Assembly (NCBI GenBank): GCA_049841135.1
Contig: JASGHK010000008.1
Location: forward strand, 147,272-211,271
Direction of reading: 5' to 3'
Origin: Myxococcales bacterium
GTDB lineage: Bacteria > Myxococcota > Myxococcia > Myxococcales > UBA5297
DNA length: 64,000 nucleotides
Below are positions 1-15,572 of this stretch, piece by piece. Every line of letters begins with the position of its first letter. Position 1 is the first letter of the stretch. The translations under genes and the position numbers were made by a program. A model generated the notes under the pieces. The model worked only from the letters and a program-made list of their open reading frames with translations. It did not search any database and was not told the origin of the DNA.

Positions 1-1971
1 TCCTTGACCACCTCTAGGAGTTCCCTCGCTGCCGCCTTCGCCTCCTCCGGGGTCGGTTCGGCAGGGACCGGCGCGCAGGGGCCGCTCGGACGGAAGAGAA
101 GCCCAGTCGCCCCGTCATAGCCCGGCTTGTCGATGATGCTGCCATCCGGCCGGAGAGATGGAGAGCCGATCACGCCGCGCAACTCGCGCACTCCTGGCCA
201 GTTGCCGCGACAGAGCGTGGCCGCGATGACTGTCCCTGGAGGGTCCATCGCGACAAGGCCCTTATCGGTTTCGTGGGCCCACCGCAGGAGGGCGCTGGCC
301 ACCTCCCAGAGCTGAGCCGCCGACAACTCGCGGACCACGGGCGCGCCAATCTCGCGGCGGCTGTGCGCGTTATCGGGTTGGCCTTCCCAGGCGGCCACCA
401 TCACGAGGTGCCCGTTGCGCTGATACACGTCCGGATGCCCAGCCAAAGCCTCGGTCAGCGCGGCAACCGATAGATGCCCATCGCTTGGGCGCCAGACGTG
501 GATCGGTCGCTCGTCTCCCCTCACCCTCGGGAGATCCCACTTCTTCCGCGCCATGCGCTTGAGTGTGCCGATCTTCTCGCCGGTCTTGCCCGACAAGAGC
601 CGCAGCCCCTCGTTGCGGTCCATTCTCGACGTGCGGGCCCTGGGCCTCTGCAAGTAGTTTCAGAACGCGATCGATCGCGTCGCGGAGAACGCCCTGCGGT
701 GAGTCCTTGGAGACCCCGGCCAACTCCTGATTGACGCGCCAGACGGTCGCGGGAGTCGCCGCTGCTATCCTCTCCTTCCACTTCTCGATGCCGTGCCGGT
801 GGATGAACTCGTCCGGATCAAGGTCATCAGGCAACCGCTCGACAACGAACGCGGCGATGCCCGCGCGTTGCAGCGCTTCGATGTTGGCGAGCGTGCCACG
901 ATCCCCGCCGCCGTCCGGGTCGCCACAGACACAGACCTTCTGCACTCCTCGCCGCCGCACCGTCTCCGTCTGCTCGCCGTTCAGTTGCGCCGAAACGGAC
1001 GCCACCACGCTGCTGTCTCCGCGAATCTGGGCAAAGGCTGCGTCGTTCACGCCCTCTACAAGAACGATCTCGCGGTTGCCATCCTCCAACGCGCGGTCGA
1101 GGAAGAAGGGCGACCGCTTCGTGTTCTCTCCAGGCAGGGCGAGAGTCTTTGGAACCCCCGTCTCCTTCCATTTCGTGGCTGCCTGTTTGTCGGGGGGCAG
1201 CGCCTGCCATGCGGCCCACTCCTCCTCGCGATCCTTCGCCCACGCCGCAGCGTCGCGCTTCTCTGGGGGTACCTCTGTGTGCCAGCGACCATAGAGGGTC
1301 AGCGGTCGACCGAACTCATCGTTCCAGAGATAGGTGATGAACCCTTCAAACTTGCGCCAGAGCAAGCAGGCCTCTCGCGCCTCGCCAAGATCGGCCCCTG
1401 CCCTGTGTAGCGCTTGCTCGACACGGGCCGCAGACAGATAGAGGCCCAAACCCAGATCGCGGATTTCGGCGTCGGTGTAGTGGCGCCCTTCGCGCAGGTA
1501 AGATCGCGCCCGTTCGCCCTCTGGGCTCCACAACTCCGAGACGCAGAACTCTTGGGCCACAGCTAGGGCCGTGCGGCGCTCCTCGCGTCGCCGTGCTTCC
1601 TCGAGCTGCTCGGGCGTCTGGTCTCGGTCCAGCGGGGAGGCGTCTACGCCCGCCAATCCAGCGAGTTTGCGGATTGCGCGGATGAAGTCCTCGCCGGTCG
1701 GCTTGCGGCCACCGTTCACGAGGTCCAAGAAGCGAACGCCCGCGTGGCCGTGCGTCTTGATCCACCAAGGGCGGTTTTCGTAGACGCAGAGGCGCTCCGG
1801 GTTCTCGTGCCCCACAGACTCGGGGAATCCGGCCGGCCACTTCGTCGCCTCCCAGCGGCGCCCCTTCTTCACCCACCCGAACTCGGGGAAGGCACGGTCG
1901 AGGTTGCGAAAGAGAGCGGGCAGCACCTCGTCCTCAAAGAAGGTGCTCGGCTTCAGGTCGGGGATGCTCAC
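1..1971 (-). CDS. TOPRIM-domain DNA primase-family protein (phage/plasmid type). It continues past the left window edge and is disrupted by indels.
   Basis: DnaG-like TOPRIM motifs EIVLVEGVNDA and VCVCGDPDGGGD in the 370..1971 ORF. Downstream, well-formed protein sequence continues in other minus frames to position 1 (…LLSGKTGEKIGTLKRMARKKWDLP…GYDGATGLLFRPSGPCAPVPAEPTPEEAKAAARELLEVVK). Frame switches at ~606-609 (C4 homopolymer), ~361 and ~300. Confidence 0.55.
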
Positions 1972-2255
1972 GACTCACCCCCGTCCGCGCCAACGGCCTG
2001 CTTCGGCATCGAAGGCTCTGCGCCTTCCGGCCGAGTCCGCAGCTCGCCACGTTGCAGCCCCAACGCACGTTCGACGCGAGCCACCCAGTCGCCGGGAGGC
2101 GTGGCCACTCCCCGAACCCACGCAGAAAGCGTGCTCGGTGACACGCTGAGTCGCTGCGCAAGTTGGGCCTGGGTGAGGTCCGCCAGTGCGAGCGCCGCCA
2201 GATACCGCCTGTGATCCAGTTGCACCATTTTCAGCCTCCGTTGCCGCGCGAACAT
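1968..2255 (-). CDS. XRE-family helix-turn-helix transcriptional regulator
   Basis: HTH signature LTQAQLAQRLSVSPSTLSAWVRG. Overlaps the primase start by 4 bp, so probably co-transcribed. Confidence 0.6.
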   Translation of the reverse strand: MFARQRRLKMVQLDHRRYLAALALADLTQAQLAQRLSVSPSTLSAWVRGVATPPGDWVARVERALGLQRGELRTRPEGAEPSMPKQAVGADGGES

Positions 2256-2321: not shown

Positions 2322-3161
2322 CTAGCTGCCCTCGTTTCCGCCTATTCCCTGGAGACGATCGTTCCGGAGACGAGCACTCTCGGCGTGCTCCTTGCGCCAG
2401 CGACCGATGCGCGCCTCTTCCTCGTTGACGTCACCGCAGGGGGGCTCTAGCCCAGCCACCACGGACAGCGCAGCAATGTCTCTGTAGGAGATTGCCATGC
2501 CATGCTTCTCTGCTGTCCCGAGTAGGGCTTGGGCGAAGGTTCGGCGTTGGTCCTGAGTGTAGGCGGACTGGTGCGCCGGCCCCTGTTGCTTGGCGTAGTC
2601 TTCAACGTCCCCCAAGTAGCAAGCCATGCGGCGCAACGTCTTCACAAACAGCGGCCACTCGGCAGCGAACCCGGGAGGCCAGGTCTTCCCCGGCGGGCCG
2701 ATCTTCCGGCACGACAAGTAGGCGTGCGCGAGTTCTCTCGCCAGGGCAGGCGACGCGTCCAAAAGGCGCCGATCGGCCACCAGACTAGGCAGCATCTGGG
2801 CGCATATTCCCTTCGCGTTCGTGATCAGGAGACCCGCCCGCTCGTCGCCATGAGTCGCAACGAGATAGGCGGTTGCTGTTTCGAGGCTCGCGGTCGCTGA
2901 TGGCTTCGCCTTTGGCCCAGTCTTCGCCCGCGCCTTCTTCGGAGCCGAGCGAGGCGGCGGGTCTGCGGAGGCTGGCCGCGAGACCTTGGCAGCAGGGATC
3001 GGAGGGAGTTCGACGCCGAGCCTGCGCGCGATTTCCTCGCCATCGGCGCATCGGTAGCAACTCGCCCGGGGACCCTTCTCGCGCTCGTGCCTCTGGCGCT
3101 TCGGACAGTCCTTCTCGGGAAGTTTGCACCGCAGTTTCCTGCAATAGAACGACGCGCCCAT
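2322..3161 (-). CDS. Hypothetical protein with an N-terminal Cys-rich (zinc-finger-like) segment
   Basis: ORF with a GGGAG RBS before MGASFYCRKLRCKLPEKDCP…CYRCADGEE. No family recognised. Confidence 0.4.
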   Translation of the reverse strand: MGASFYCRKLRCKLPEKDCPKRQRHEREKGPRASCYRCADGEEIARRLGVELPPIPAAKVSRPASADPPPRSAPKKARAKTGPKAKPSATASLETATAYLVATHGDERAGLLITNAKGICAQMLPSLVADRRLLDASPALARELAHAYLSCRKIGPPGKTWPPGFAAEWPLFVKTLRRMACYLGDVEDYAKQQGPAHQSAYTQDQRRTFAQALLGTAEKHGMAISYRDIAALSVVAGLEPPCGDVNEEEARIGRWRKEHAESARLRNDRLQGIGGNEGS

Positions 3162-3238
3162 GTTCCGCTCCCACAGCGGCCCCAGGTGAGAACCGGCGGC
3201 GGGCAGGCGCACTGGGGATGCGCTTTTCGGGAGCTACC

Positions 3239-3646
3239 CTAGCCCGCGCCGTTCAACTTGGACTCTACGCCTGGCCGTGCTGCTTCTCCCATTTGTGGAA
3301 CGAGGCCAGTTGCGCTTGCTGGCGGGCGCTGAAGCTGGCAAATGGGCGTGGTCATCGCTGCGTTGAGGTCCGCGAAGGTCGTCTTTCCGGTGCGCTCGCA
3401 GTAGGCGCGCTCCCGCATGTGGAACTGCTGGGCGGTGATCTCGACGTACCAGCGAAACGCGGGGTCCCGGCCGATGCCCGCCGCGATGCGCTCCGACGTG
3501 AGGATGGGCAGTTTGTTGGCGGCGGCCTTCACCTTCCTGGCGACCTCGCGCAACTCGGCGTCGGTGACAGGCTTGACGATGATGGCGGTCTCCGCGGCCG
3601 CGTTCTTGCTCTGCGAGGCTGGACGGTTCAACTTGGTGGTAGCCAT
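3239..3646 (-). CDS. Hypothetical protein
   Basis: 135-aa ORF in the same operon orientation as the RHH and primase genes. No recognisable domain. Confidence 0.35.
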   Translation of the reverse strand: MATTKLNRPASQSKNAAAETAIIVKPVTDAELREVARKVKAAANKLPILTSERIAAGIGRDPAFRWYVEITAQQFHMRERAYCERTGKTTFADLNAAMTTPICQLQRPPASATGLVPQMGEAARPGVESKLNGAG

Positions 3647-3761
3647 TGCGTCGCTCTCCGTGTTCGGCGCGGTGGTGAGGGCGGGGGTCCGGTTGCCGCC
3701 GGGCCTCCGTCCGTTCCTCCTTCCGGCGCGCCAGAACCCGGAGGGAGGAGGAAATCTTCGA

Positions 3762-4022
3762 CTAGCCGATTCCCCTCTTGGCCCTCTCTTGACGCGAGCC
3801 CATGCCCTTGACGGCGCTTGGAGCTCGGGGTGGGGCGATGCCCTCCTGCTTCTCTACAACCGGAAGCCCGGCGAGCAGAATCATGCGAACCACGTCCGTG
3901 GTCGTTGGCGCCAGTCCGGGGCGGGAGAGTTTCTCCTTCACCACCTCCAGGCGCTCGAAGAGTTCATGCTCCAACCTGATGGCGATCTGCGTCGTGTTCG
4001 GCGTCTTGTTCGTGGGCACCAT
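3762..4022 (-). CDS. Ribbon-helix-helix (CopG/Arc-like) DNA-binding protein
   Basis: AAGGAG RBS 6 bp upstream. N-terminal beta-strand plus two helices: TTQIAIRLEHELFERLEVVKEKLSRPGLAPTTTDVVRMILLAGL. Divergent from the resolvase gene. Confidence 0.5.
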   Translation of the reverse strand: MVPTNKTPNTTQIAIRLEHELFERLEVVKEKLSRPGLAPTTTDVVRMILLAGLPVVEKQEGIAPPRAPSAVKGMGSRQERAKRGIG

Positions 4023-4142
4023 GCGCGGCTCCTTGATCGTTGGAAGGAGTCTATTGGCGGTCGCAATATTTGTCAACCACGCATTGCGCGCATTGCTGGG
4101 TGGTGCTACTGTCCAAGTCGCACCCGCTCGGAGGTCTGCCCG

Positions 4143-4784
4143 ATGCCCAAGAGTCAGCCCGCTGCCGCCTGCTACCTGCGCGTCTCCAGCGACCGCCAGA
4201 CCGTCGAGAACCAGCGGGCCGAGGTAGAGGCGCTCGCACGGGCCAGGGGGCTAATGCCGGTCTTCTACGAGGAGACGGAATCCGCGGCGAAGAAGCGGCC
4301 CGAGTTCGACCGGATGCTGGCCGAGGTGCGGCGCGGAAAGGCTTCGGCCGTCGTCGTCTGGGCGCTCGACCGCCTACACCGCTCGATGGCGGGCGCAATC
4401 AACGACGTCTTGGAACTCGACCGCCTCAACGTGCGCGTCCTGTCGGTGCGGGAGCCCTGGCTAGACACGTCCGGCCCAGTTCGCCCCCTCCTCGTCGCCA
4501 TCTTCGGCTGGGTAGCCGAGCAGGAGCGGGCCCGGCTCATCGAGCGGACGAAGGCAGGAATCGAGCGCGCACGGGCCGAGGGGAAGCGGCTGGGGCGTCC
4601 GCCCACGTCGTCTATCCTTCTGCACGCGGCTCGCGATCTTGTCGCCGGGGGCGCGACTGTCGCGGCGGCAGCACGAGCCAAAGGCGTGTCCCGCGCAGCT
4701 CTCCGGCGCTTCCTGTCCGCTCAAGGTGGCCGAAAAGGTGTCTCCGGGGACCCCACTGGCGAGGCCCAGATTCCCGCCCCTTAA
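4143..4784 (+). CDS. Small serine recombinase (resolvase/invertase family) with a C-terminal HTH
   Basis: Catalytic-serine motif YLRVSSDRQ near the N-terminus. Resolvase-like core (VVVWALDRLHRS, ERTKAGIERARAEGKRLGRP). The in-frame ATG at 4143 sits inside the longer 3417..4784 ORF. Confidence 0.8.
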   Translation: MPKSQPAAACYLRVSSDRQTVENQRAEVEALARARGLMPVFYEETESAAKKRPEFDRMLAEVRRGKASAVVVWALDRLHRSMAGAINDVLELDRLNVRVLSVREPWLDTSGPVRPLLVAIFGWVAEQERARLIERTKAGIERARAEGKRLGRPPTSSILLHAARDLVAGGATVAAAARAKGVSRAALRRFLSAQGGRKGVSGDPTGEAQIPAP

Positions 4785-5274: not shown

Positions 5275-6351
5275 TTAGCGGCAGCAGGCGGGGCGTCCAG
5301 CAAGGACTTGCGCACAGGAGCCACTTGCGGCGAGCGGGGACTTCCAGAGGCTGTGGTCAGTCCACGTCGACGGCAATCCCATCGACGTTGCGAACAATGG
5401 ATCCTTGTCCACGCTCTGAAGAAGTCTTGCGGCGTCCTGCGCCCACTGCTCGCCTCCTGGCACTGGCTTAGTGAGGTGACGAAGGATGCTGAGGACACAG
5501 AAGACCCTCGTGTTCCCGAATTGCCAAGTTGGATCCTTCTTGGGCAGCAGCGGCTTGATCGACAGCTCGCGATTCCAAAGCCGCCCATGGTGTGCGCAAA
5601 CGTTTCGAACGTAACTGAGCGATCGAAGCCATGAGACGGCGACGATGGCGGTGACCCCGAATTCGCCGGCGATTGGCAATCTGTCGCCGGTCAACATGTT
5701 CTCAAATAGCAAAGAGAGGCTACCGAACGACATGACCTCTGATGCCATCCAGATCGGGATTGACGGGAAGCCGTTGTACTTCGACCGGAAGTGCCCCAGG
5801 AAGTTCTCGCGAGCGCGATGAGTTTCTTTGCGCAGCGAGTCGATCCAGTCTCTGTGTCCCACGGCCCATGAGTGGTCGAAGTTGCGCGCGTCCTCGTGGG
5901 CGAAGGCCCCATGCCTATGACCGAGTTGGTAGGTGATCTTCGTCCGCAGCAGGATCTCTACCCGCTGAATCGCATCGAAGACACACAGCCGCAAGCGTCG
6001 ATCGAACTCGTACAACTCAATCGCTCGCTCGAACGTCGCTCCCGCAATGAACGTGTCGTCGGGGTGCTTGAACGGGTGCCAGTAGGCGCTAAGGCGGTAG
6101 TAGCTGATGCGCGCCAAGCGCTCCAACGCACGCGGACGGTCGGCTACAGCAAGACCGCGACGCTCAAGAAGGGCGAGCTGGTCACTGAAAGTCAGCGCTT
6201 GCTTGCTGTATGGTTGCCCCACAGTTGTCAGTGTGGCTGTTCGCCAAGACGCTGGGCAAGAAAAAACCGGCCTGAGGCGCGTGGCCCTTGCGGACCAGAG
6301 GCGTGGCCGGTGTGTTGAAGGCATTTTGCGTCCCACAGGTTGTGGGGTCAA
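5275..6351 (-). CDS. Abi-like abortive-infection protein (Abi_2 / AbiD-AbiF family). The N-terminal start is uncertain.
   Basis: Family hallmark YSKQALTFSDQLALLERRGLAVADRPRALERLARISYYRLSAYWHPF followed by a conserved helical body. The true start is probably internal (TTG/GTG around 6225-6235). Confidence 0.7.
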   Translation of the reverse strand: MTPQPVGRKMPSTHRPRLWSARATRLRPVFSCPASWRTATLTTVGQPYSKQALTFSDQLALLERRGLAVADRPRALERLARISYYRLSAYWHPFKHPDDTFIAGATFERAIELYEFDRRLRLCVFDAIQRVEILLRTKITYQLGHRHGAFAHEDARNFDHSWAVGHRDWIDSLRKETHRARENFLGHFRSKYNGFPSIPIWMASEVMSFGSLSLLFENMLTGDRLPIAGEFGVTAIVAVSWLRSLSYVRNVCAHHGRLWNRELSIKPLLPKKDPTWQFGNTRVFCVLSILRHLTKPVPGGEQWAQDAARLLQSVDKDPLFATSMGLPSTWTDHSLWKSPLAASGSCAQVLAGRPACCR

Positions 6352-6413: not shown

Positions 6414-6677
6414 CTAGATCCCCTCCCGCATCACGCGCTCGATCTCCGTCCACGGCACCTTCCAGCGTCCATTGATGCGGATGGCGCGGATCCGCTTGCA
6501 GGCGACCAGTTCGTGCAGCGTGTCGTTGCGGCTAACGCCAAGCATGGATGCGGCCTGCGCAAACGAGAGCAGAGCACGCGGCGGGCGGCGCTTGTGTGAG
6601 AGCAACTCGTCCAGCTTCCGCTCGATGCGGTCCAACTGCTCCCGGAGAGCCTCCCACTCTGCCTTGGTCGGTTCCAT
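6414..6677 (-). CDS. AlpA/excisionase-family (HTH_17) DNA-binding protein
   Basis: LLSFAQAASMLGVSRNDTLHELVACKRIRAIRINGRWKVPWTEIER matches the Xis/AlpA helix-turn-helix pattern. Confidence 0.6.
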   Translation of the reverse strand: MEPTKAEWEALREQLDRIERKLDELLSHKRRPPRALLSFAQAASMLGVSRNDTLHELVACKRIRAIRINGRWKVPWTEIERVMREGI

Positions 6678-7515: not shown

Positions 7516-8814
7516 TCACTCCGTCGGGCAGTCGCCCGTCTTGGCCGTCAGCAGCCCATCCACAAACGTCAGCGTGCACGTTCCCTTGGCCGTGGTTACC
7601 GCCAGGTGCGTGGTAAGTCCCTGCCGCCAGTCGGTGTCGTAGCCGTAGAGAGTCGGGAAGTAGCCGCCGCCGAGCGCGTAGACGGTACCGTTGAACAGCT
7701 TGTTCCCGGCGAAGGTCTGGTCGGCCGTCGTGACGTGGCCTGCCTGCGATGCAGATGCGGCCTGCGTCGTCAGTGGGCTGCCGGCGGTTCCAGCGCCAGT
7801 GATGGGAGCGGAGACGTGCAGCGCCGCCGCCAGGCTGACCGACGACCAGACTGAGCCAGCGTCGCAGACCATGAGGAGTTGGTCAGTGGTGTTCCATGCC
7901 AGCGCGCCAGCGGCGCACACGGCCGGGAGGCTGCCCACCGTGTAGGAGCCGACGCGAACGGTCTGCGAGAAGTCGCCAGTCCAGCCGGATACCGTGCCCT
8001 GTACTGTGGCCCCATAGGCGTTGATGGTGTGCGTGTAGCCGCCGCCAGTCACGGTCAGCGTTGGGGTGGTGACCGAGGTTGAGAAGGTCTTGGCACCAGC
8101 CGCGGTCTCGTTCCCAGTGAGATGCAGCGCGTACGGATCGGACTCAGACACGCAGACCGGAGGCCCGTCCGAGGCCGTGGTCTTGAGGAAGGTGCCAGAG
8201 TCGCAAACTGGCCAGCCGCTTACCTTCCCGAGCCCGACGCCGTCGATCTCGCCGTCGCTGACGCACGGCCCCTCCAGGCAGTACAGGTTCCCTGCTGCGC
8301 TTGCCCAGTTCACCCAGTCGACGCAGGTAGGCGAGGCGCCGCCCACGGACGCGAGGTTGTACCCGGAGCCGCAGACCGGCCACTCACTGACCTTGGCAAG
8401 GCCGACCGTGGAGATCTCGGAATCGGCCACGCAACCGGAGCACTGGAGGTCTGCCGCAACGCTGGCCGTGGGGGCGTTGGTCGCGCAAGTCATGGCGCCA
8501 GTGCTCACGTTCCATCCGGTCATGAGGCCGCTGCCGCTGCAAGTCGTGCTGGCGCCGTTCCCCTTCACTCCGCCGAGGGTCGATGCTGACGCAACAGGAA
8601 GCGTGTAGCCGGGAGAAGTACCGCTGGGCGTGCAGTTGGTCCAGGCACCGCTACGGCAACACCAGACCTGGGCCGGGTTCGTCTGAGTGACCCAGACGCG
8701 TGACCCTACGCAAGTGCCGGAAGGGATGCCCTCGGCCACATAGACCGGAGGTCCCTGCAGTGCTTGCAACGCAAACGCAACCGCTACTGCGGCGCCTGAG
8801 CCAAGACAGTCCAT
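7516..8814 (-). CDS. Secreted cysteine-containing repeat protein (fibre/lectin-like)
   Basis: Start MDCLGSGAAVAVAFALQALQG (signal peptide, GGGAG RBS). Internal ~45-aa repeats (EISTVGLAKVSEWPVCGSGYNLAS / EIDGVGLGKVSGWPVCDSGTFLKT). Thr/Gly-rich beta-rich C-terminus. Confidence 0.5.
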   Translation of the reverse strand: MDCLGSGAAVAVAFALQALQGPPVYVAEGIPSGTCVGSRVWVTQTNPAQVWCCRSGAWTNCTPSGTSPGYTLPVASASTLGGVKGNGASTTCSGSGLMTGWNVSTGAMTCATNAPTASVAADLQCSGCVADSEISTVGLAKVSEWPVCGSGYNLASVGGASPTCVDWVNWASAAGNLYCLEGPCVSDGEIDGVGLGKVSGWPVCDSGTFLKTTASDGPPVCVSESDPYALHLTGNETAAGAKTFSTSVTTPTLTVTGGGYTHTINAYGATVQGTVSGWTGDFSQTVRVGSYTVGSLPAVCAAGALAWNTTDQLLMVCDAGSVWSSVSLAAALHVSAPITGAGTAGSPLTTQAASASQAGHVTTADQTFAGNKLFNGTVYALGGGYFPTLYGYDTDWRQGLTTHLAVTTAKGTCTLTFVDGLLTAKTGDCPTE

Positions 8815-9254
8815 GACCAACTCCCATCCGAGTTTTGAAGGCAGATCAAAAGTTGCTCCGGAGTGCCTTCGTCCTGCACACGTACAAAGCGGCCAAGCCA
8901 GTTTGGACCTGGGGCCGGAAGCAGTTCGGTCTTGCCGGGCACTGCGCCCGAGGTGACGAACCGCGGCGGGTACATCGCTACCGTGTTCCAAGACCACCGA
9001 TGCTCATTGTTGGTGCTCGCGTCCTGCAGACAGACCTGCAACTGCTCGGGGGTTCGGAGGCTGTCCCAGACGCGAATCAACTCGCCAGCCTGGGCCTCGC
9101 CTGCCTTGAGCCGCTTCGCTGTCGTAACCCTGGGCGGATAGGACATTGCCCAAGCAGTAAGGACACGGAGAGCGGCGATAACCTGGTCCTGGAACCGAGC
9201 TAGGACTCCGTCGTTGACGTGGAGGCGCATGGGCTGCGGGAAGTTCCGGGGCAT
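8784..9254 (-). CDS. Hypothetical protein with two copies of a ~30-aa CLQ…SWSW repeat
   Basis: Repeats IRVWDSLRTPEQLQVCLQDASTNNEHRWSWNTV and VRVQDEGTPEQLLICLQNSDGSWSWTVL. Paralogous to the adjacent upstream gene. Confidence 0.45.
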   Translation of the reverse strand: MPRNFPQPMRLHVNDGVLARFQDQVIAALRVLTAWAMSYPPRVTTAKRLKAGEAQAGELIRVWDSLRTPEQLQVCLQDASTNNEHRWSWNTVAMYPPRFVTSGAVPGKTELLPAPGPNWLGRFVRVQDEGTPEQLLICLQNSDGSWSWTVLAQAPQ

Positions 9255-9274
9255 GGCGTGCGGCTCCTTGAGGT

Positions 9275-9571
9275 TCAGGCCTTCGCCACTGTTGCCCAGT
9301 GCCACGAGTCGTCGGCCCGCTGCAGGCAGATCACCAGCGAATCCGCCTCGCCCTCGTTCACCAGCCGCACCATGCACCCCTCGAAGAACGCGGACGGGGC
9401 CGGGAGCGCCTGGGGCGTGTAGCAGGGGAGGCGCCGCTTGAACCGAGCGAGCAAGACACGCGGCAGGGCTCGGAGGGCGGCCCACAATTCAGCCAGAAAT
9501 TCCCGATTTCGATTCATTTGTAATTCTTTCATTGTTTGCGTGCGCCGAGCAATCAGACAATCCGGCTTCAC
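9275..9571 (-). CDS. Hypothetical protein, a paralogue carrying one CLQ…SWHW repeat
   Basis: VRLVNEGEADSLVICLQRADDSWHWATV plus an N-terminal helix similar to the neighbouring gene. The start may be at an internal Met (MKELQ). Confidence 0.4.
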   Translation of the reverse strand: MKPDCLIARRTQTMKELQMNRNREFLAELWAALRALPRVLLARFKRRLPCYTPQALPAPSAFFEGCMVRLVNEGEADSLVICLQRADDSWHWATVAKA

Positions 9572-9682
9572 TCTTGCTGAATACTAGCGAAATTCATTCT
9601 TGATATTGCATTCTATCACGCGATAGCCCTAATCGAGCGTATAATTATCATCAACAAATCGCATCAAATAGGAGTCTTCCCG
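9486..9682. promoter_or_regulatory. AT-rich intergenic island, likely a divergent promoter region inside the acquired element
   Basis: ~200 bp of roughly 35-40% GC in a 70% GC background. Contains TATAAT-like hexamers (tataat, tattg) and short inverted repeats. Lies between divergently oriented genes. Confidence 0.45.
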
Positions 9683-9940
9683 ATGGCTGAGAACGAGCCC
9701 GCGCCGCGCCCTGGTTCAGTCGTGCCGCTCCCACCTCGACACCGCAAACTGCGAAGCGCCGCGAACGTGCGCAGCCTCATGGCGTGGATCGTCCGGGAGT
9801 TGGAAGCCAACCGCCTGGACCCCGAGCGGGCGCGCGCCATGACCATGGCTGCCCAGACGCTGCTCAAGTCCATCGAGACGGCCACGCTTGAGAAGAAGAT
9901 CAAGGACTTCGAAGCCAGCCGGCGAGCGGGCACGCTGTGA
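9683..9940 (+). CDS. Hypothetical small protein
   Basis: AGGAG RBS directly upstream. 85 aa. First gene of a three-gene operon. Confidence 0.45.
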   Translation: MAENEPAPRPGSVVPLPPRHRKLRSAANVRSLMAWIVRELEANRLDPERARAMTMAAQTLLKSIETATLEKKIKDFEASRRAGTL

Positions 9941-10206
9941 ACTACAAGCGCATGCGCCGGAGGGTGGAGCGCCTCATTGCCCAGCTCGAACAACGGCAGG
10001 GCGCTGCAGCCGTCAACAACCAGGTCCTCGCGCGCGAGCCCAAGCCGCCCGCACTGCGCATCGCCGGGCCGGTGGATGCCACTGCAGCCGACTGGGCCGG
10101 GAGACTGCTGCGCCTACCTCCCGAGGTCCGCCGCGCCGCGGTTGAGCGCATGGGCCAGGTGCTTGCCGAGGTCGAGCAAGACGCAGCGAAATCTTCGGGG
10201 AAGTAG
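9937..10206 (+). CDS. Hypothetical small basic protein
   Basis: GTGA start/stop overlap with the preceding gene. 89 aa. Confidence 0.4.
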   Translation: MNYKRMRRRVERLIAQLEQRQGAAAVNNQVLAREPKPPALRIAGPVDATAADWAGRLLRLPPEVRRAAVERMGQVLAEVEQDAAKSSGK

Positions 10207-10262
10207 CGGCCGGTTTTCATAATTTGCACTCGCGGGCTCGCGCTCGCAGTCGAGGTGAAGCG

Positions 10263-10727
10263 ATGCCTACCCTCCGCTTGCCTGAAGCCCCCTCGCTTCG
10301 AACAGAGCAAGGCCTTTGGGCCCTCGGGTATCGCTGGGTGTGGGGTATCGCAGCCTTCGGGCTCGCTCGTGACGGACAGCCGCAGAGCATCCACGCCGCA
10401 GCCGTCTTGCTCCCCGAGGACTTCAAGCCGGCAGACCTGGCGCCCGAGGTCATCCGCCAGCGCGTGCGAGCGTGCGCGTTCGGTTCGGCCGAGGTCACGA
10501 GAGGCGCACCCCTTCGCCGGGTAGGACTTCGGGCCGCACAGCGGGCGGTCGACGCCCTGGGCCTGCCGCTCGACTACCTGCTACGTGGCTTCTCGTATGA
10601 CCTGCCGGGCACCTACGTTCCTGGCGAGCACATCGAACAGGGCGAGCAACGGTGTCTGAGCATCGCCGCAGCCGCAACCCTCGCCGGATTGGCAGTCCGG
10701 GAACGGATGGCACAGTCTGGCGCGTGA
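10263..10727 (+). CDS. RNase HII-like protein with substituted catalytic residues (predicted inactive)
   Basis: GAGGTG RBS. RNase HII-like blocks are recognisable: VWGIAAFGLARDG (where RnhB has GVDEAGRGP), DYLLRGFSYDLP (RnhB YVLIDGNRCPKLP) and EQRCLSIAAAATLAG (RnhB GDSRVPEISAASILAK). The D-E-D-D catalytic positions read A-A-R-E. Confidence 0.45.
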   Translation: MPTLRLPEAPSLRTEQGLWALGYRWVWGIAAFGLARDGQPQSIHAAAVLLPEDFKPADLAPEVIRQRVRACAFGSAEVTRGAPLRRVGLRAAQRAVDALGLPLDYLLRGFSYDLPGTYVPGEHIEQGEQRCLSIAAAATLAGLAVRERMAQSGA

Positions 10728-10728
10728 C

Positions 10729-11124
10729 CTACTGCTTCGCGGCACCCGCTGCCGCCGGCTGCGTCTTCTTCCACTCCTCAAACGCCGCCTTGGCCTGCCT
10801 GTCCTGCTCCTCGGCGCTGAGCGGGGCGATCTTTTCAGTAGCCGTGACCGGGTTGGCGGCAGTGGGCGCTACGGGCACTTGGGCCGGCGGGGTGGCGCAC
10901 TGGATGGCGATGAAGCCGTTGACGCTGGTTGCCTCATCAATGATGTAGCCGTCGGGGCACGCGTCCCCAGCGCGCGCGACGCAGTTGGAGTGATTCCGGC
11001 ACCTGATCCCCAACCAGTCGGCGCCATCGGGCCCGCGGAAGACGTCGGTCCGGGCCCTGCTCGCGCAACTCAGGGTGAGTGCAAACGCTACGACAACGAC
11101 TGCGAAGCCGGCGCCGCGAATCAT
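10729..11124 (-). CDS. Secreted hypothetical protein
   Basis: Start MIRGAGFAVVVAFALTLSCASRA (signal peptide). Cys-containing small domain, then an Ala/Pro-rich tail. Confidence 0.45.
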   Translation of the reverse strand: MIRGAGFAVVVVAFALTLSCASRARTDVFRGPDGADWLGIRCRNHSNCVARAGDACPDGYIIDEATSVNGFIAIQCATPPAQVPVAPTAANPVTATEKIAPLSAEEQDRQAKAAFEEWKKTQPAAAGAAKQ

Positions 11125-11545
11125 GGGAAAACCCCCGCAGCGGGAAAGATAGCACGGCGCCAATCTCGGGTCGGCGGTCGTGCTCCCGGGCGCACCACCC
11201 ACGTTCCGCGCCGCGACGTTGCCCTGCTCCGCACGCTCTCTGCCTTCCCTTGGCCCTCTGTCTGCAACGGGGGCGCTGGACGGGTTCTCGATGGAGGGAG
11301 GGCGGCGGGATGACAGCGGACAGGATGTTTCGGAAGCTCGCAGCGCTGGCGCTGGCCGTGGGCGAGTTGGAGCTACAGACCGCCCAGAAAGAGCGCGACT
11401 GGCAGCGAGTCCGACGGGCAAGACTGCTCCTAGCCGCAGCCGAACGGTTCGCCAGCGCGCTGCTCAGCACGGGCGTTGAGGTCCACTTGACCTTGGATGG
11501 GCTCTGACCCCGAGGTGCTACAGTGCCGAGCGGGAGGCCTAGACC

Positions 11546-12196
11546 ATGACTCGGCTCGTAGTCGCTGCGATCGCATGCCTTGTGGCTGCCAACTGCACGG
11601 GCCCGGCGGGGGCGCAAGGGGCAAAAGGAGAACAGGGGCCCCAAGGCGTAGTTGGTCCGACTGGCGCGACTGGGGCAACGGGGGCTACCGGAGTAGCAGG
11701 CGCGACAGGGGCCCAAGGAGACCCAGGCACCAAGGGCGATCAAGGTGAACAGGGAGCGAAGGGCGACCCCGGCGCAGCATGCAGGCAGGCAGTCTTGAAG
11801 ACAGCAAATGGCGCCGTCGTTGGAGTGGGAGTGGCGCCGTTCGGGCCTCCCAACTTCGATACGACCGTGACCGCGTTCAACACTGCGGCCAACAAGTTGA
11901 TGGTCGTGCGGCTGGACACCGGACGCCTGGACGTTCGCGCCGTCGTCTACTTCGAAGACGCCTACTGCGGCGGGAAGGCGTGGATTGAGAAGACAGGAGC
12001 CGTCCTAGTCGAAGGCGAGAGCACGACGCGTCTCTTCGCCCCCACTTTCACCAAGGCTCAGTCCTTCCAAGCGGGCTCGATGATCGCCATGCAGGGATGC
12101 ATCAGCAACAGCAAGTCCGGCACTGGCTATCCCGTGACGGAAGTGACCGACCCCGCCTATCCCTACGCCACGCCGCTGGAGATCGTGCTCCAGTAG
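11546..12196 (+). CDS. Collagen-like triple-helix repeat protein (secreted/lipoprotein)
   Basis: Signal peptide [19 protein letters not shown]. About 25 Gly-X-Y triplets ([28 protein letters not shown]…). Globular C-terminal domain. Confidence 0.65.
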
Positions 12197-12895: not shown

Positions 12896-13353
12896 TCTTC
12901 GACACCCAGACGACCCGAAAGAGGAAGCGCGCGAATCGCGTCCCTGTCTCCTTTGGACAGAGGGATCTTCTTCGCCCGAGCAGCGATAGCGGCCCAGTCG
13001 CCAGGTTGGGTTGGCGCGGCTCGTTCGTCCTTTGGCCGTGGTGGCAACTCGCGCACCGGGTCTTCTTCAAGTGCCGCTACCACGGAAGCACGGAAGACCA
13101 TCGTGCGTCGGCCGATTCGTCTGGCTCGACGGACCACTCCGTCCCGAATGAGCGCGAAGACGTGGGTGCGCCCGCAGCGGAGGAGTGTGGCCGCCTCATC
13201 GACGGTGACCACGAGTGGTTTCTCGACGGCATCGTTGGGCCGAGAGGCTTGGTCTTTAGTTGCTGAAGACTTCGCCTCGACCAGCGCCACGAGTCTCCGG
13301 GTCAAATGGACGAGTTCGACCAGCAACTCCCGTTCAGTCTCAAGAGTGGGCAT
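12892..13353 (-). CDS. AlpA/excisionase-family (HTH_17) DNA-binding protein at the element end
   Basis: [47 protein letters not shown]. Located directly next to the comM junction. Confidence 0.6.
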
Positions 13354-13539
13354 GCGCGAAGCCTAGCCCGACGCGCCAGGAGGCCTCAGGACGAACGTGC
13401 AGCGTGGCCCATCTGGGAGCCCAACCCACTACCTGTGACGCGCAGGAAGGGCTGTTTTGGCGGTTTGGCGGGCCACGGCGGGCGGGCCTTCCTACACCGC
13501 GACCGAGAGGAGAAACGGTACCCCGGACATATGTCCCGA

Positions 13540-14426
13540 CTGGGTTGATGCTCGGGCCGCCTGGCTCTGGGAAGACGATGCTCGCCAAGCGCCTGCCCAC
13601 CATCCTGCCGGGCATGAGCTTCGAGGAAGCGCTCGAGACGACGAAGGTCTACAGCGTCGTGGGCATGGTCGGCGACCGCTCGCTCATCTACGAGCGCCCC
13701 TTCCGCGCGCCGCACCACACCATCAGCGACGCTGGCCTCATCGGCGGCGGCTCGGTGCCGCGGCCGGGCGAGGTCTCGCTCGCGCACAACGGCGTGCTCT
13801 TCCTGGACGAGCTGCCCGAGTTCAAGAAGAACGTCCTCGAGGTCCTGCGCCAGCCTCTGGAGGACGGCAAGGTCACCATCGCTCGCGCCGCGCAGACCAT
13901 CACCTTCCCCTCGCGGATGATGCTGCTGGCGGCGATGAACCCCTGTCCCTGCGGCCACGCGGGCAGCGGCACGCACCCCTGCAACTGCAACCCCAAGGAG
14001 GTCCTGAGTTACCGCTCGCGGATCAGCGGGCCGCTGCTGGACCGGATCGACCTGCACGTCACCGTGCCGCCGGTGCGCTACCGCGACCTGACGCCGCAGC
14101 GCGAGGGCGAGACCTCCGCGGCGCTGCGCGAGCGAGTCCAGCAGGCGCGGGCGCTGCAGCTGACCCGCTTCCTGCGGACGCCGGGCACCCACTGCAACGC
14201 GCAGATGACGCCCCGGCAGATCCGCCGGTTCTGCGAAGTCGACGCCGAGGGCGCCTCGCTGCTGCAGAACGTGGTCGACCGGGTCGGCATGAGCGCGCGG
14301 GCCTACGACCGCATCCTCAAGGTCGCCAGGACGATCGCCGACCTCGACGGCTCCGAGGCCATCCGCTCGAGCCACGTCAGCGAGGCCATCAGCTACCGGA
14401 CGCTCGACAGGAAGCTTCCGGCTTGA
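13540..14426 (+). pseudogene. comM: comM/yifB (Mg-chelatase-like AAA+ competence protein), 3' two-thirds only. The N-terminal Lon-like domain is missing.
   Basis: Homology begins abruptly at Walker A ([17 protein letters not shown]) and runs through the ChlI AAA+ and C-terminal domains (AAMNPCPCG…). The ~200-aa N-terminal domain is absent, and the upstream DNA encodes the oppositely oriented Xis-like gene. Confidence 0.75.

Positions 14427-14524: not shown

Positions 14525-15572
<1,048 letters not shown>

Follow-up and report, generated by a model that had tools for sequence, protein, structure and literature searches.

An RNase HII homologue stripped of its catalytic residues, a candidate pseudoenzyme, on a putative integrative element of a Myxococcales bacterium

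RNase HII, the product of rnhB, is among the most uniformly conserved of the repair nucleases. Here, we describe a strongly divergent homologue in a 64,000-nucleotide stretch of DNA from a Myxococcales bacterium (GenBank assembly GCA_049841135.1, contig JASGHK010000008.1, positions 147,272 to 211,271 of the forward strand; hereafter the window, with positions counted from its first nucleotide). The homologue is the product of orf3, the last of three tightly packed open reading frames (ORFs), and it lacks all four acidic catalytic residues of the family together with the elements that hold the substrate. On the evidence presented below we favour, at a probability of roughly 55%, the reading that orf3 encodes a folded, RNase HII-derived pseudoenzyme, which would be a catalytic-domain scaffold without catalysis. 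The locus is laid out as follows.

9533 to 9682, no strand: AT-rich divergent intergenic region of 150 bp, between the minus-strand gene at 9275 to 9532 and orf1
9683 to 9940, plus strand: orf1, 85 amino acids, ATG start, AGGAG at 9670 to 9674 (8 nt upstream)
9937 to 10206, plus strand: orf2, 89 amino acids, GTG start that shares the sequence GTGA with the orf1 stop (4-nt overlap)
10207 to 10262, plus strand: spacer of 56 nt between orf2 and orf3, carrying the Shine-Dalgarno sequence GAGGTG at 10252 to 10257
10263 to 10727, plus strand: orf3, 154 amino acids, ATG start with GAGGTG 5 nt upstream, homologue of the RNase HII catalytic domain

That the 154-residue product is related to RNase HII had been proposed in the original prediction, a reading of the DNA letters made ahead of any database search. 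Sequence, profile and structure comparisons all recovered this relationship, and they argue that orf3 is a true RNase HII homologue whose similarity to the family is not due to chance. In BLASTP, orf3 aligned with an RNase HII of the Anaerolineales over 94% of its length at 38% identity (E 7e-16), the highest identity to any real enzyme. This alignment begins at the very first residues, with MPTLR...LPEAPSL facing MPRLR...LPEAPDL. In orf3 the Met-Pro start of the ancestor is retained, as is the motif LPEAPxL..E.GLW of the N-terminal helix. Comparison by hhalign of a profile built from eight real RNase HII sequences with orf3 gave a probability of 99.2% (E 1.1e-19, 141 columns). Five NCBIfam RNase HII models also matched (E 1e-3 to 1e-2), with scores of 15.6 to 18.6 bits that lie under the curated cut-offs of 167 to 273, and Pfam, including PF01351, gave no match at E values up to 10. 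A HMMER search of 1.84 billion representative proteins returned, at E values up to 1e-3, the public annotation of orf3 itself and six RNase HII proteins, all six of which bear the full RNase HII motifs; both of those with a named source are annotated as RNase HII.

An AlphaFold2 model of orf3 had a mean predicted local distance difference test score (pLDDT) of 86 and a predicted template modelling score (pTM) of 0.83, which is supportive but not independent evidence since the shallow 8-sequence alignment given to the program was made of real RNase HII and biases the model toward that fold. The secondary structure elements of the model were H13-20, E26-36, E39-49, H61-67, E70-77, H84-99, E105-108, E121-123 and H132-153 (H, helix; E, strand). 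With this model as the Foldseek query the best match in the PDB was 5y9p, the RNase HII of Staphylococcus aureus (E 3.5e-8, TM score 0.76), followed by 7uwe_C of Escherichia coli and 3o3f of Thermotoga maritima. At the sequence level the S. aureus enzyme was the sole PDB match of orf3 (E 1.2). The idea that the similarity to RNase HII might be spurious thus found no support.

The functional features of the family are well defined in the RNase H2 of T. maritima, which has four absolutely conserved carboxylates (D18, E19, D107 and D124), a GRG bulge that senses the 2'-OH while R22 sits in the minor groove, and a mobile DSK loop whose K47 contacts the scissile phosphate (PMC3025331). In the same structure K122 and K138 lie on the backbone, R141 and R182 brace the GRG bulge, and a C-terminal domain with the junction-sensing tyrosine Y163 supplies one half of the groove in which the substrate is bound; the catalytic domain itself ends with helix E (PMC3025331). 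Pairwise and multiple alignments as well as hhalign placed the four carboxylates (DEDD) at A30, A31, G109 and E128 of orf3. The corresponding codons are listed here.

10350 to 10367, plus strand: codons of A30-A31-F32-G33-L34-A35, which replace D-E-x-G-R-G, that is the first two catalytic carboxylates and the GRG bulge
10587 to 10589, plus strand: codon of G109, where T. maritima RNase H2 has the third catalytic Asp, D107
10644 to 10646, plus strand: codon of E128, at the site of the fourth catalytic Asp (D124); the Lys close before it (the K122 equivalent) is Q126

The replacement of all four acidic catalytic positions, as originally predicted, was confirmed by these alignments. The motif readings behind that prediction were essentially right, the exception being the third Asp, which aligns with G109, while the neighbouring R108 had been taken as its replacement. 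A shift of the catalytic residues to nearby positions was ruled out, as there is no Asp or Glu within 2 positions of A30 or G109. orf3 is also more degraded than the original prediction had seen, in that the binding apparatus is lost besides the catalytic one. The GRG bulge has become G33-L34-A35 followed by a 2-residue insertion, and the equivalent of R22 is gone; the DSK loop with K47 is deleted, the K138 equivalent is G142, and that of R141 is V145. The ORF ends at the end of helix E, which is the domain boundary, and the C-terminal domain of about 58 residues, including the junction-sensing Tyr, is absent. A frameshifted C-terminal half downstream of orf3 was sought by tblastn with full-length RNase HII in any frame and was ruled out, since nothing was found past 10694. 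Because the carboxylates, the substrate contacts and the C-terminal domain have been lost, orf3 is predicted with confidence to be no nuclease and to be unable to cleave; for the same reason canonical binding of RNA/DNA hybrids is unlikely, and orf3 is not expected to be a canonical reader of junctions or hybrids.

The next issue is whether orf3 is a maintained pseudoenzyme or a decaying relic. In the latter case, a fragment of rnhB from a former host of the element would have lost its 3' end by rearrangement and would now be drifting without function, its open frame and the small neighbouring ORFs being incidental in GC-rich DNA. Since there was no second sequence for a comparison of nonsynonymous and synonymous substitution rates (dN/dS), we used the 31 alignment columns that are invariant in the eight real RNase HII enzymes. 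None of the 13 polar or charged invariant columns is kept in orf3. Specifically, D and E became A30 and A31, the D, S and K of the DSK loop were lost (P61, E62 and a gap), an R fell in a gap, the Asp of the EID motif became A82, and the remaining changes were D to G109, D to E128, S to A138, K to G142, R to V145 and D to R146. By contrast, 12 of the 16 covered non-polar invariant columns are kept, namely four Gly, five Ala, two Ile and one Leu (Fisher p 6e-5 for the split between polar and non-polar retention). As a GC-rich genome might keep Gly and Ala codons through mutation bias alone, we ran a GC-biased neutral simulation, with substitutions only, that started from a real rnhB gene and continued until an equal count of invariant positions had been lost. 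This required about 0.44 substitutions per nt, and the simulated genes kept on average 4.5 of the 13 polar and 7.4 of the 16 non-polar columns. The combination of no polar and at least 12 non-polar columns was not reached in any of 400 runs.

These results bear directly on the relic. Decay that erased all 13 polar residues should also have removed roughly one in two of the non-polar residues, yet 12 of 16 are kept. Frameshifting indels would also be expected at about 0.44 substitutions per nt, whereas the length differences between orf3 and the real enzymes are all in frame (an insertion of 2 residues, the DSK-loop deletion, two small deletions and an insertion of 1 residue). A best identity of just 38% rules out a pseudogene of recent origin from any lineage sampled, and the ancestral start codon and a good ribosome-binding site (RBS) are intact. 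We therefore favour a folded pseudoenzyme over a relic because the non-polar core is retained while the polar positions are erased, a pattern never matched by the neutral simulation; a maintained protein is also favoured by the in-frame indels, the ancestral start with its good RBS, and a truncation that falls exactly on a domain boundary.

Several observations weigh on the other side. The set of invariant columns is small and comes from just eight enzymes that were picked as the best matches to orf3. Purifying selection on orf3 lacks a second sequence to draw on, as the HMMER search returned only orf3 itself and the six ordinary RNase HII proteins. One in five neutral runs (20%) stayed free of stop codons, so that an open frame in DNA of 68% GC is weak evidence by itself. 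GC at the third codon position (GC3) is lower in orf3 (0.74) than in the other two ORFs and falls to 0.69 in its first third, and the N-terminal 48 codons were left uncalled by the public annotation pipeline (PGAP). The 3' truncation abuts a convergent gene, and deletion rather than design is a conceivable cause. orf3 is a singleton with relatives absent from every collection searched, orf1 and orf2 are orphans too, and orf3 is represented by one sequence from a single metagenome-assembled genome (MAG). A relic would further fit the loss of every functional motif and of the C-terminal domain, the fact that PGAP called just 106 residues of orf3, the orphan status of the surrounding genes from 8.7 to 13 kb, and the housekeeping nature of the real relatives, which occur for example in an rplS-lepB-rnhB context. 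Taken together, a drifting relic remains a serious, though lesser, possibility.

A different objection concerns the gene model. The public annotation shows three consecutive hypothetical proteins at this locus and calls merely 57 residues of orf1 and 106 of orf3. If only the annotated 106-residue product starting from the TTG at 10407 were made, or nothing at all, no RNase H-like domain would be produced. Within orf3 the coding signal is weakest over the first third, as its GC3 indicates, and a recA frameshift in the same assembly (described below) means that gene models in this region cannot be fully trusted. A mis-call is opposed by the 48 upstream codons, whose products can be matched one by one to the N-terminal residues of real RNase HII (MPxLR, LPEAPxL, E.GLW and strand 1). 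Moreover, GAGGTG lies 5 nt before the ATG at 10263, while nothing resembling an RBS was noticed ahead of the TTG. We regard a mis-called gene as the least probable of the explanations considered here, and very improbable in itself.

The three plus-strand ORFs were found where the original prediction had placed them, with orf3 as the last member of a tightly packed unit. According to the ORF list and the frame translations they occupy three different frames, and the ATG of orf3 is at 10263, not 10264. GC at codon positions 1, 2 and 3 is 0.66, 0.52 and 0.83 for orf1, 0.79, 0.49 and 0.80 for orf2, and 0.76, 0.55 and 0.74 for orf3. This pattern is coding-like in all three ORFs, position 3 being GC-rich and position 2 the poorest in GC. 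The packing, which we count as another sign that orf3 is maintained, appears operon-like, as judged from the 4-nt overlap, the 56-nt spacer, the RBS before orf1 and orf3, and a terminator scan in which none was predicted inside the unit. The sole terminator-like site in that scan lies downstream of orf3, and such sites occur there at a chance-level count. The stop codon of orf3 is 1 nt away from that of the convergent lipoprotein-like gene.

The unit had also been predicted to start from an AT-rich promoter. An AT-rich divergent region is indeed present at 9533 to 9682 and contains a perfect TATAAT at 9640 to 9645; this box has no -35 box, however, and a consensus sigma-70 promoter scan of 9200 to 11600 returned zero promoters. 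The region is presumed to be the putative promoter/operator of the three-ORF unit. An imperfect palindrome, CTATCACGCGATAG, is located at 9613 to 9626, 14 nt upstream of the TATAAT, with 6 of 7 positions paired. It may be a candidate operator for one of the helix-turn-helix (HTH) proteins of the island described below.

The two small proteins encoded ahead of orf3 are basic, as had been noted, with isoelectric points (pI) of 10.8 for orf1 and 11.1 for orf2. The orf1 protein has a Pro-rich N-terminus followed by helices, and that of orf2 is helical. In a database of 5.8 billion proteins, orf1 matched solely the 57-residue annotation of its own MAG (QM765_47360) and orf2 solely itself (QM765_47365); a word-indexed search of the same 5.8 billion proteins with orf3 returned its own annotation and one real RNase HII. 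Exact-sequence look-ups of the annotated proteins, meant to recover their genomic context, found no entry. No match to orf1 was found in Pfam, NCBIfam or PHROGs, and those in PADLOC were at chance level (E 0.02 to 0.03). The family matches of orf2 in Pfam and NCBIfam were likewise at chance level (ABATE, E 0.033; GspH, E 0.032). Neither orf1 nor orf2 had a phage, plasmid or viral-contig match in INPHARED, PLSDB or IMG/VR. Among GTDB genome contigs orf3 found just an ordinary Anaerolineaceae rnhB, and no relatives of the cassette were detected in JGI metagenome contigs, IMG/VR, INPHARED phages or PLSDB plasmids. All three proteins are therefore orphans in the collections searched, and the search for the three-gene cassette in other genomes, which had been suggested as a way to place it in defence islands, gave zero occurrences across proteins, GTDB, JGI, IMG/VR, phages and plasmids. 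It is possible that an indel in the assembly has divided a single gene into orf1 and orf2; the frame of orf2 is not open before 9892, and the recA frameshift shows that such errors can occur here.

In the original prediction the inactive RNase H-fold protein was given a nucleic-acid or hybrid-binding role in defence, anti-defence or replication control; spelled out, it would bind RNA/DNA hybrids or R-loops and form a module for such a role with the two basic proteins. There are reasons to consider this. The mobile island carries an AbiD gene (PADLOC E 7.9e-72), orf1 and orf2 are basic enough (pI around 11) that they could bind nucleic acid, and inactivated RNase H-fold domains have been reported in some defence systems, such as the YprA fusions of TALON (bioRxiv 10.1101/2025.09.15.676423). 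Hybrid binding is argued against by the loss of R22, the GRG backbone, K47, K122, K138, Y163 and the C-terminal groove (contacts as in PMC3025331), so that every substrate-holding element is substituted, deleted or truncated, and by a near-neutral net charge of orf3 (17 K+R against 15 D+E). A role in defence or anti-defence is not supported either. None of the three ORFs had a PADLOC or PHROGs match beyond chance, with no matches at all for orf2 and orf3 in PADLOC-DB 2.0 and PHROGs. AbiD, which is encoded on the opposite strand, is separated from the unit by 3.3 kb and five other ORFs, and the cassette does not recur in other genomes. We consider this reading quite unlikely.

The location of the unit on a mobile element, in contrast, was supported, and the DNA around it has the marks of horizontal acquisition. 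From position 1 to about 13,540 the window has a GC content of 0.60 to 0.68, against 0.70 to 0.76 in the rest of it, and GC3 is lower as well. The other features of this low-GC island and its border are as follows.

370 to 1968, minus strand: Toprim/DnaG-like (primase-like) gene, island
1968 to 2252, minus strand: Cro/CI HTH gene, island
3180 to 3249, minus strand: int-alpA RNA motif RF02996 (Rfam; 37.1 bits against a gathering threshold of 35.8, E 5e-4), just upstream of the minus-strand ORF 2322 to 3209
about 4161 to 4781, plus strand: small serine recombinase (NCBIfam Mpi-family invertase, E 1.5e-19)
5275 to 6348, minus strand: AbiD/Abi_2 abortive-infection gene (Pfam E 1.9e-55; PADLOC AbiD as above)
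6414 to 6674, minus strand: HTH_17 gene adjoining AbiD, one of two HTH_17 (HTH/excisionase-like) genes on the island
7516 to 8994, minus strand: Gly/Ser/Thr/Cys-rich tail-fibre-like protein, weak tail-fibre/baseplate matches (BppL_N E 1.8e-4; phrog_10512 E 5e-3)
8784 to 9260, minus strand: orphan gene with two copies of a motif of about 30 residues
9275 to 9532, minus strand: orphan gene with one copy of the same motif, divergent from orf1
10729 to about 11124, minus strand: small protein with a lipoprotein-type signal (…LTLSC), convergent with orf3
11546 to 12193, plus strand: collagen triple-helix repeat protein (E 1e-9)
13260 to 14423, plus strand: comM/yifB Mg-chelatase-like ATPase, homology from about 13545 (TIGR00368 from profile position 215 of 499)

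The 5' 40% of comM is missing and the low-GC island abuts the truncated end. Together with the lower GC and GC3 and the presence of recombinase, primase-like, HTH and AbiD genes, this indicates an integrative element that was probably inserted in comM, with its left end beyond the start of the window. The catalytic domain of the serine recombinase begins at residue 250 of the long plus-strand ORF 3417 to 4781, and the real gene is probably a small invertase/resolvase of about 205 residues with a start near 4161. Such an enzyme is therefore an unlikely candidate for the integrase behind the insertion in comM. The mix of tail-fibre-like, collagen-repeat and lipoprotein-like genes looks phage-like or surface-related. 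The motif shared by the two orphan genes next to orf1 reads x-V-R-[VL]-x-[DN]-E-G-x-x-E/D-x-L-x-[IV]-C-L-Q-x-x-D-x-S-W-x-W. Neither gene belongs to a Pfam or PHROGs family or has relatives in metagenome or viral contigs, and 8784 to 9260, used as a probe for related islands, retrieved no relatives.

A further idea was that rnhB had been captured from a comM-adjacent host locus, such as the rnhB...yraN-comM neighbourhood of actinobacteria. This idea was not supported, as the closest real rnhB genes were not beside comM in the loci inspected. Beyond the island border, recA (14525 to 15572, plus strand) is split by a 1-nt frameshift near 15124 to 15127, with cagaagaatcggcgtgatgttc where CAG AAG ATC GGC GTG ATG TTC (QKIGVMF) would be expected, so that its N-terminal 190 and C-terminal 150 residues are in adjacent frames. 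The break could stem from an indel that arose in assembly at a short run of A, or recA could be a true pseudogene here; it is a warning of indel errors in this MAG.

Returning to orf3 as a folded pseudoenzyme, the following course may be envisaged. The gene descends from a normal bacterial rnhB; it is predicted to have lost two-metal-ion binding, the contact with the scissile phosphate and 2'-OH sensing, and it lacks the other wall of the substrate groove, while the buried Gly, Ala, Ile and Leu positions of the fold were kept, so that it would have been retained as a folded protein. Its translation, as the final gene of a cargo unit of three ORFs whose other two products are small, very basic and helical, is probable, and the unit may be driven from the AT-rich divergent region on the integrative element in comM. 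We infer its expression, its co-transcription, its folding in vivo and the existence of any partner. The most likely mode of action is protein-protein contact, with orf3 as a compact alpha/beta scaffold. It would then either serve the two basic proteins as an adaptor or imitate the host RNase HII in front of a partner of that enzyme. A precedent for such a partner exists in E. coli, where RNase HII docks on RNA polymerase in the complex of transcription-coupled ribonucleotide excision repair (TC-RER; PDB 7uwe; review PMC13492167). At its most specific, this leads to an undescribed three-protein module whose disarmed RNase HII core mimics the host enzyme at a docking site, for instance on RNA polymerase, or tethers the basic proteins there, and so modulates ribonucleotide or R-loop processing or transcription for the element. 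We rate this module as unlikely. If it were true, mimicry or an adaptor role would benefit the element, for example in its maintenance, in anti-defence or in superinfection exclusion.

If orf3 is made and folded, it would mean that mobile DNA can put the core of a type 2 RNase H to new use as a non-enzymatic module, and it could offer a handle on the contacts that RNase HII makes in the cell besides its substrate. With a single sequence from one MAG, what it offers in practice goes no further than a cheap and well-defined biochemical test.

Compared with known systems, orf3 is a genuine variant, found once, within a known family and not a recognisable defence system. Catalytically inactivated RNase H-fold domains on mobile or defence-type DNA are also found as C-terminal fusions to the YprA helicase in TALON, and RNase H domains occur in TOTE (bioRxiv 10.1101/2025.09.15.676423). 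Judged by their descriptions, those domains are set apart from orf3 in being fused in large helicases of recurrent multi-gene systems, whereas orf3 is a free-standing protein of 154 residues with type 2 ancestry, no helicase nearby, no recurrence and no PADLOC match. Described pseudoenzymes of viruses and mobile elements similarly combine a kept fold with lost catalytic residues and carriage on mobile DNA; unlike orf3, none of those in the parts of the two accounts consulted is an RNase HII (PMC7605207, PMC5106787). In the literature searched, we came across no account of a bacterial RNase HII that is both free-standing and catalytically dead. The closest known relative is bacterial RNase HII itself (RnhB; PF01351, PRK00015/PRK13925; 3o3f, 5y9p, 7uwe_C), which orf3 resembles over the whole catalytic domain, in the predicted order of strands and helices, in the N-terminal helix motif and in a common RCLSIAAA segment of helix E. 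It differs in having none of the DEDD carboxylates except a Glu at the fourth site, in lacking GRG, the DSK loop and the equivalents of R22, K47, K122, K138 and R141, in scoring about 18 bits against the NCBIfam cut-offs and finding no Pfam match, and in residing on a mobile island while the closest real rnhB genes are in housekeeping neighbourhoods. Since it falls short of both the functional features and the score thresholds of the family, orf3 should be described as a member of the RNase HII superfamily by descent, and as a putative RNase HII-derived pseudoenzyme rather than an RNase HII.

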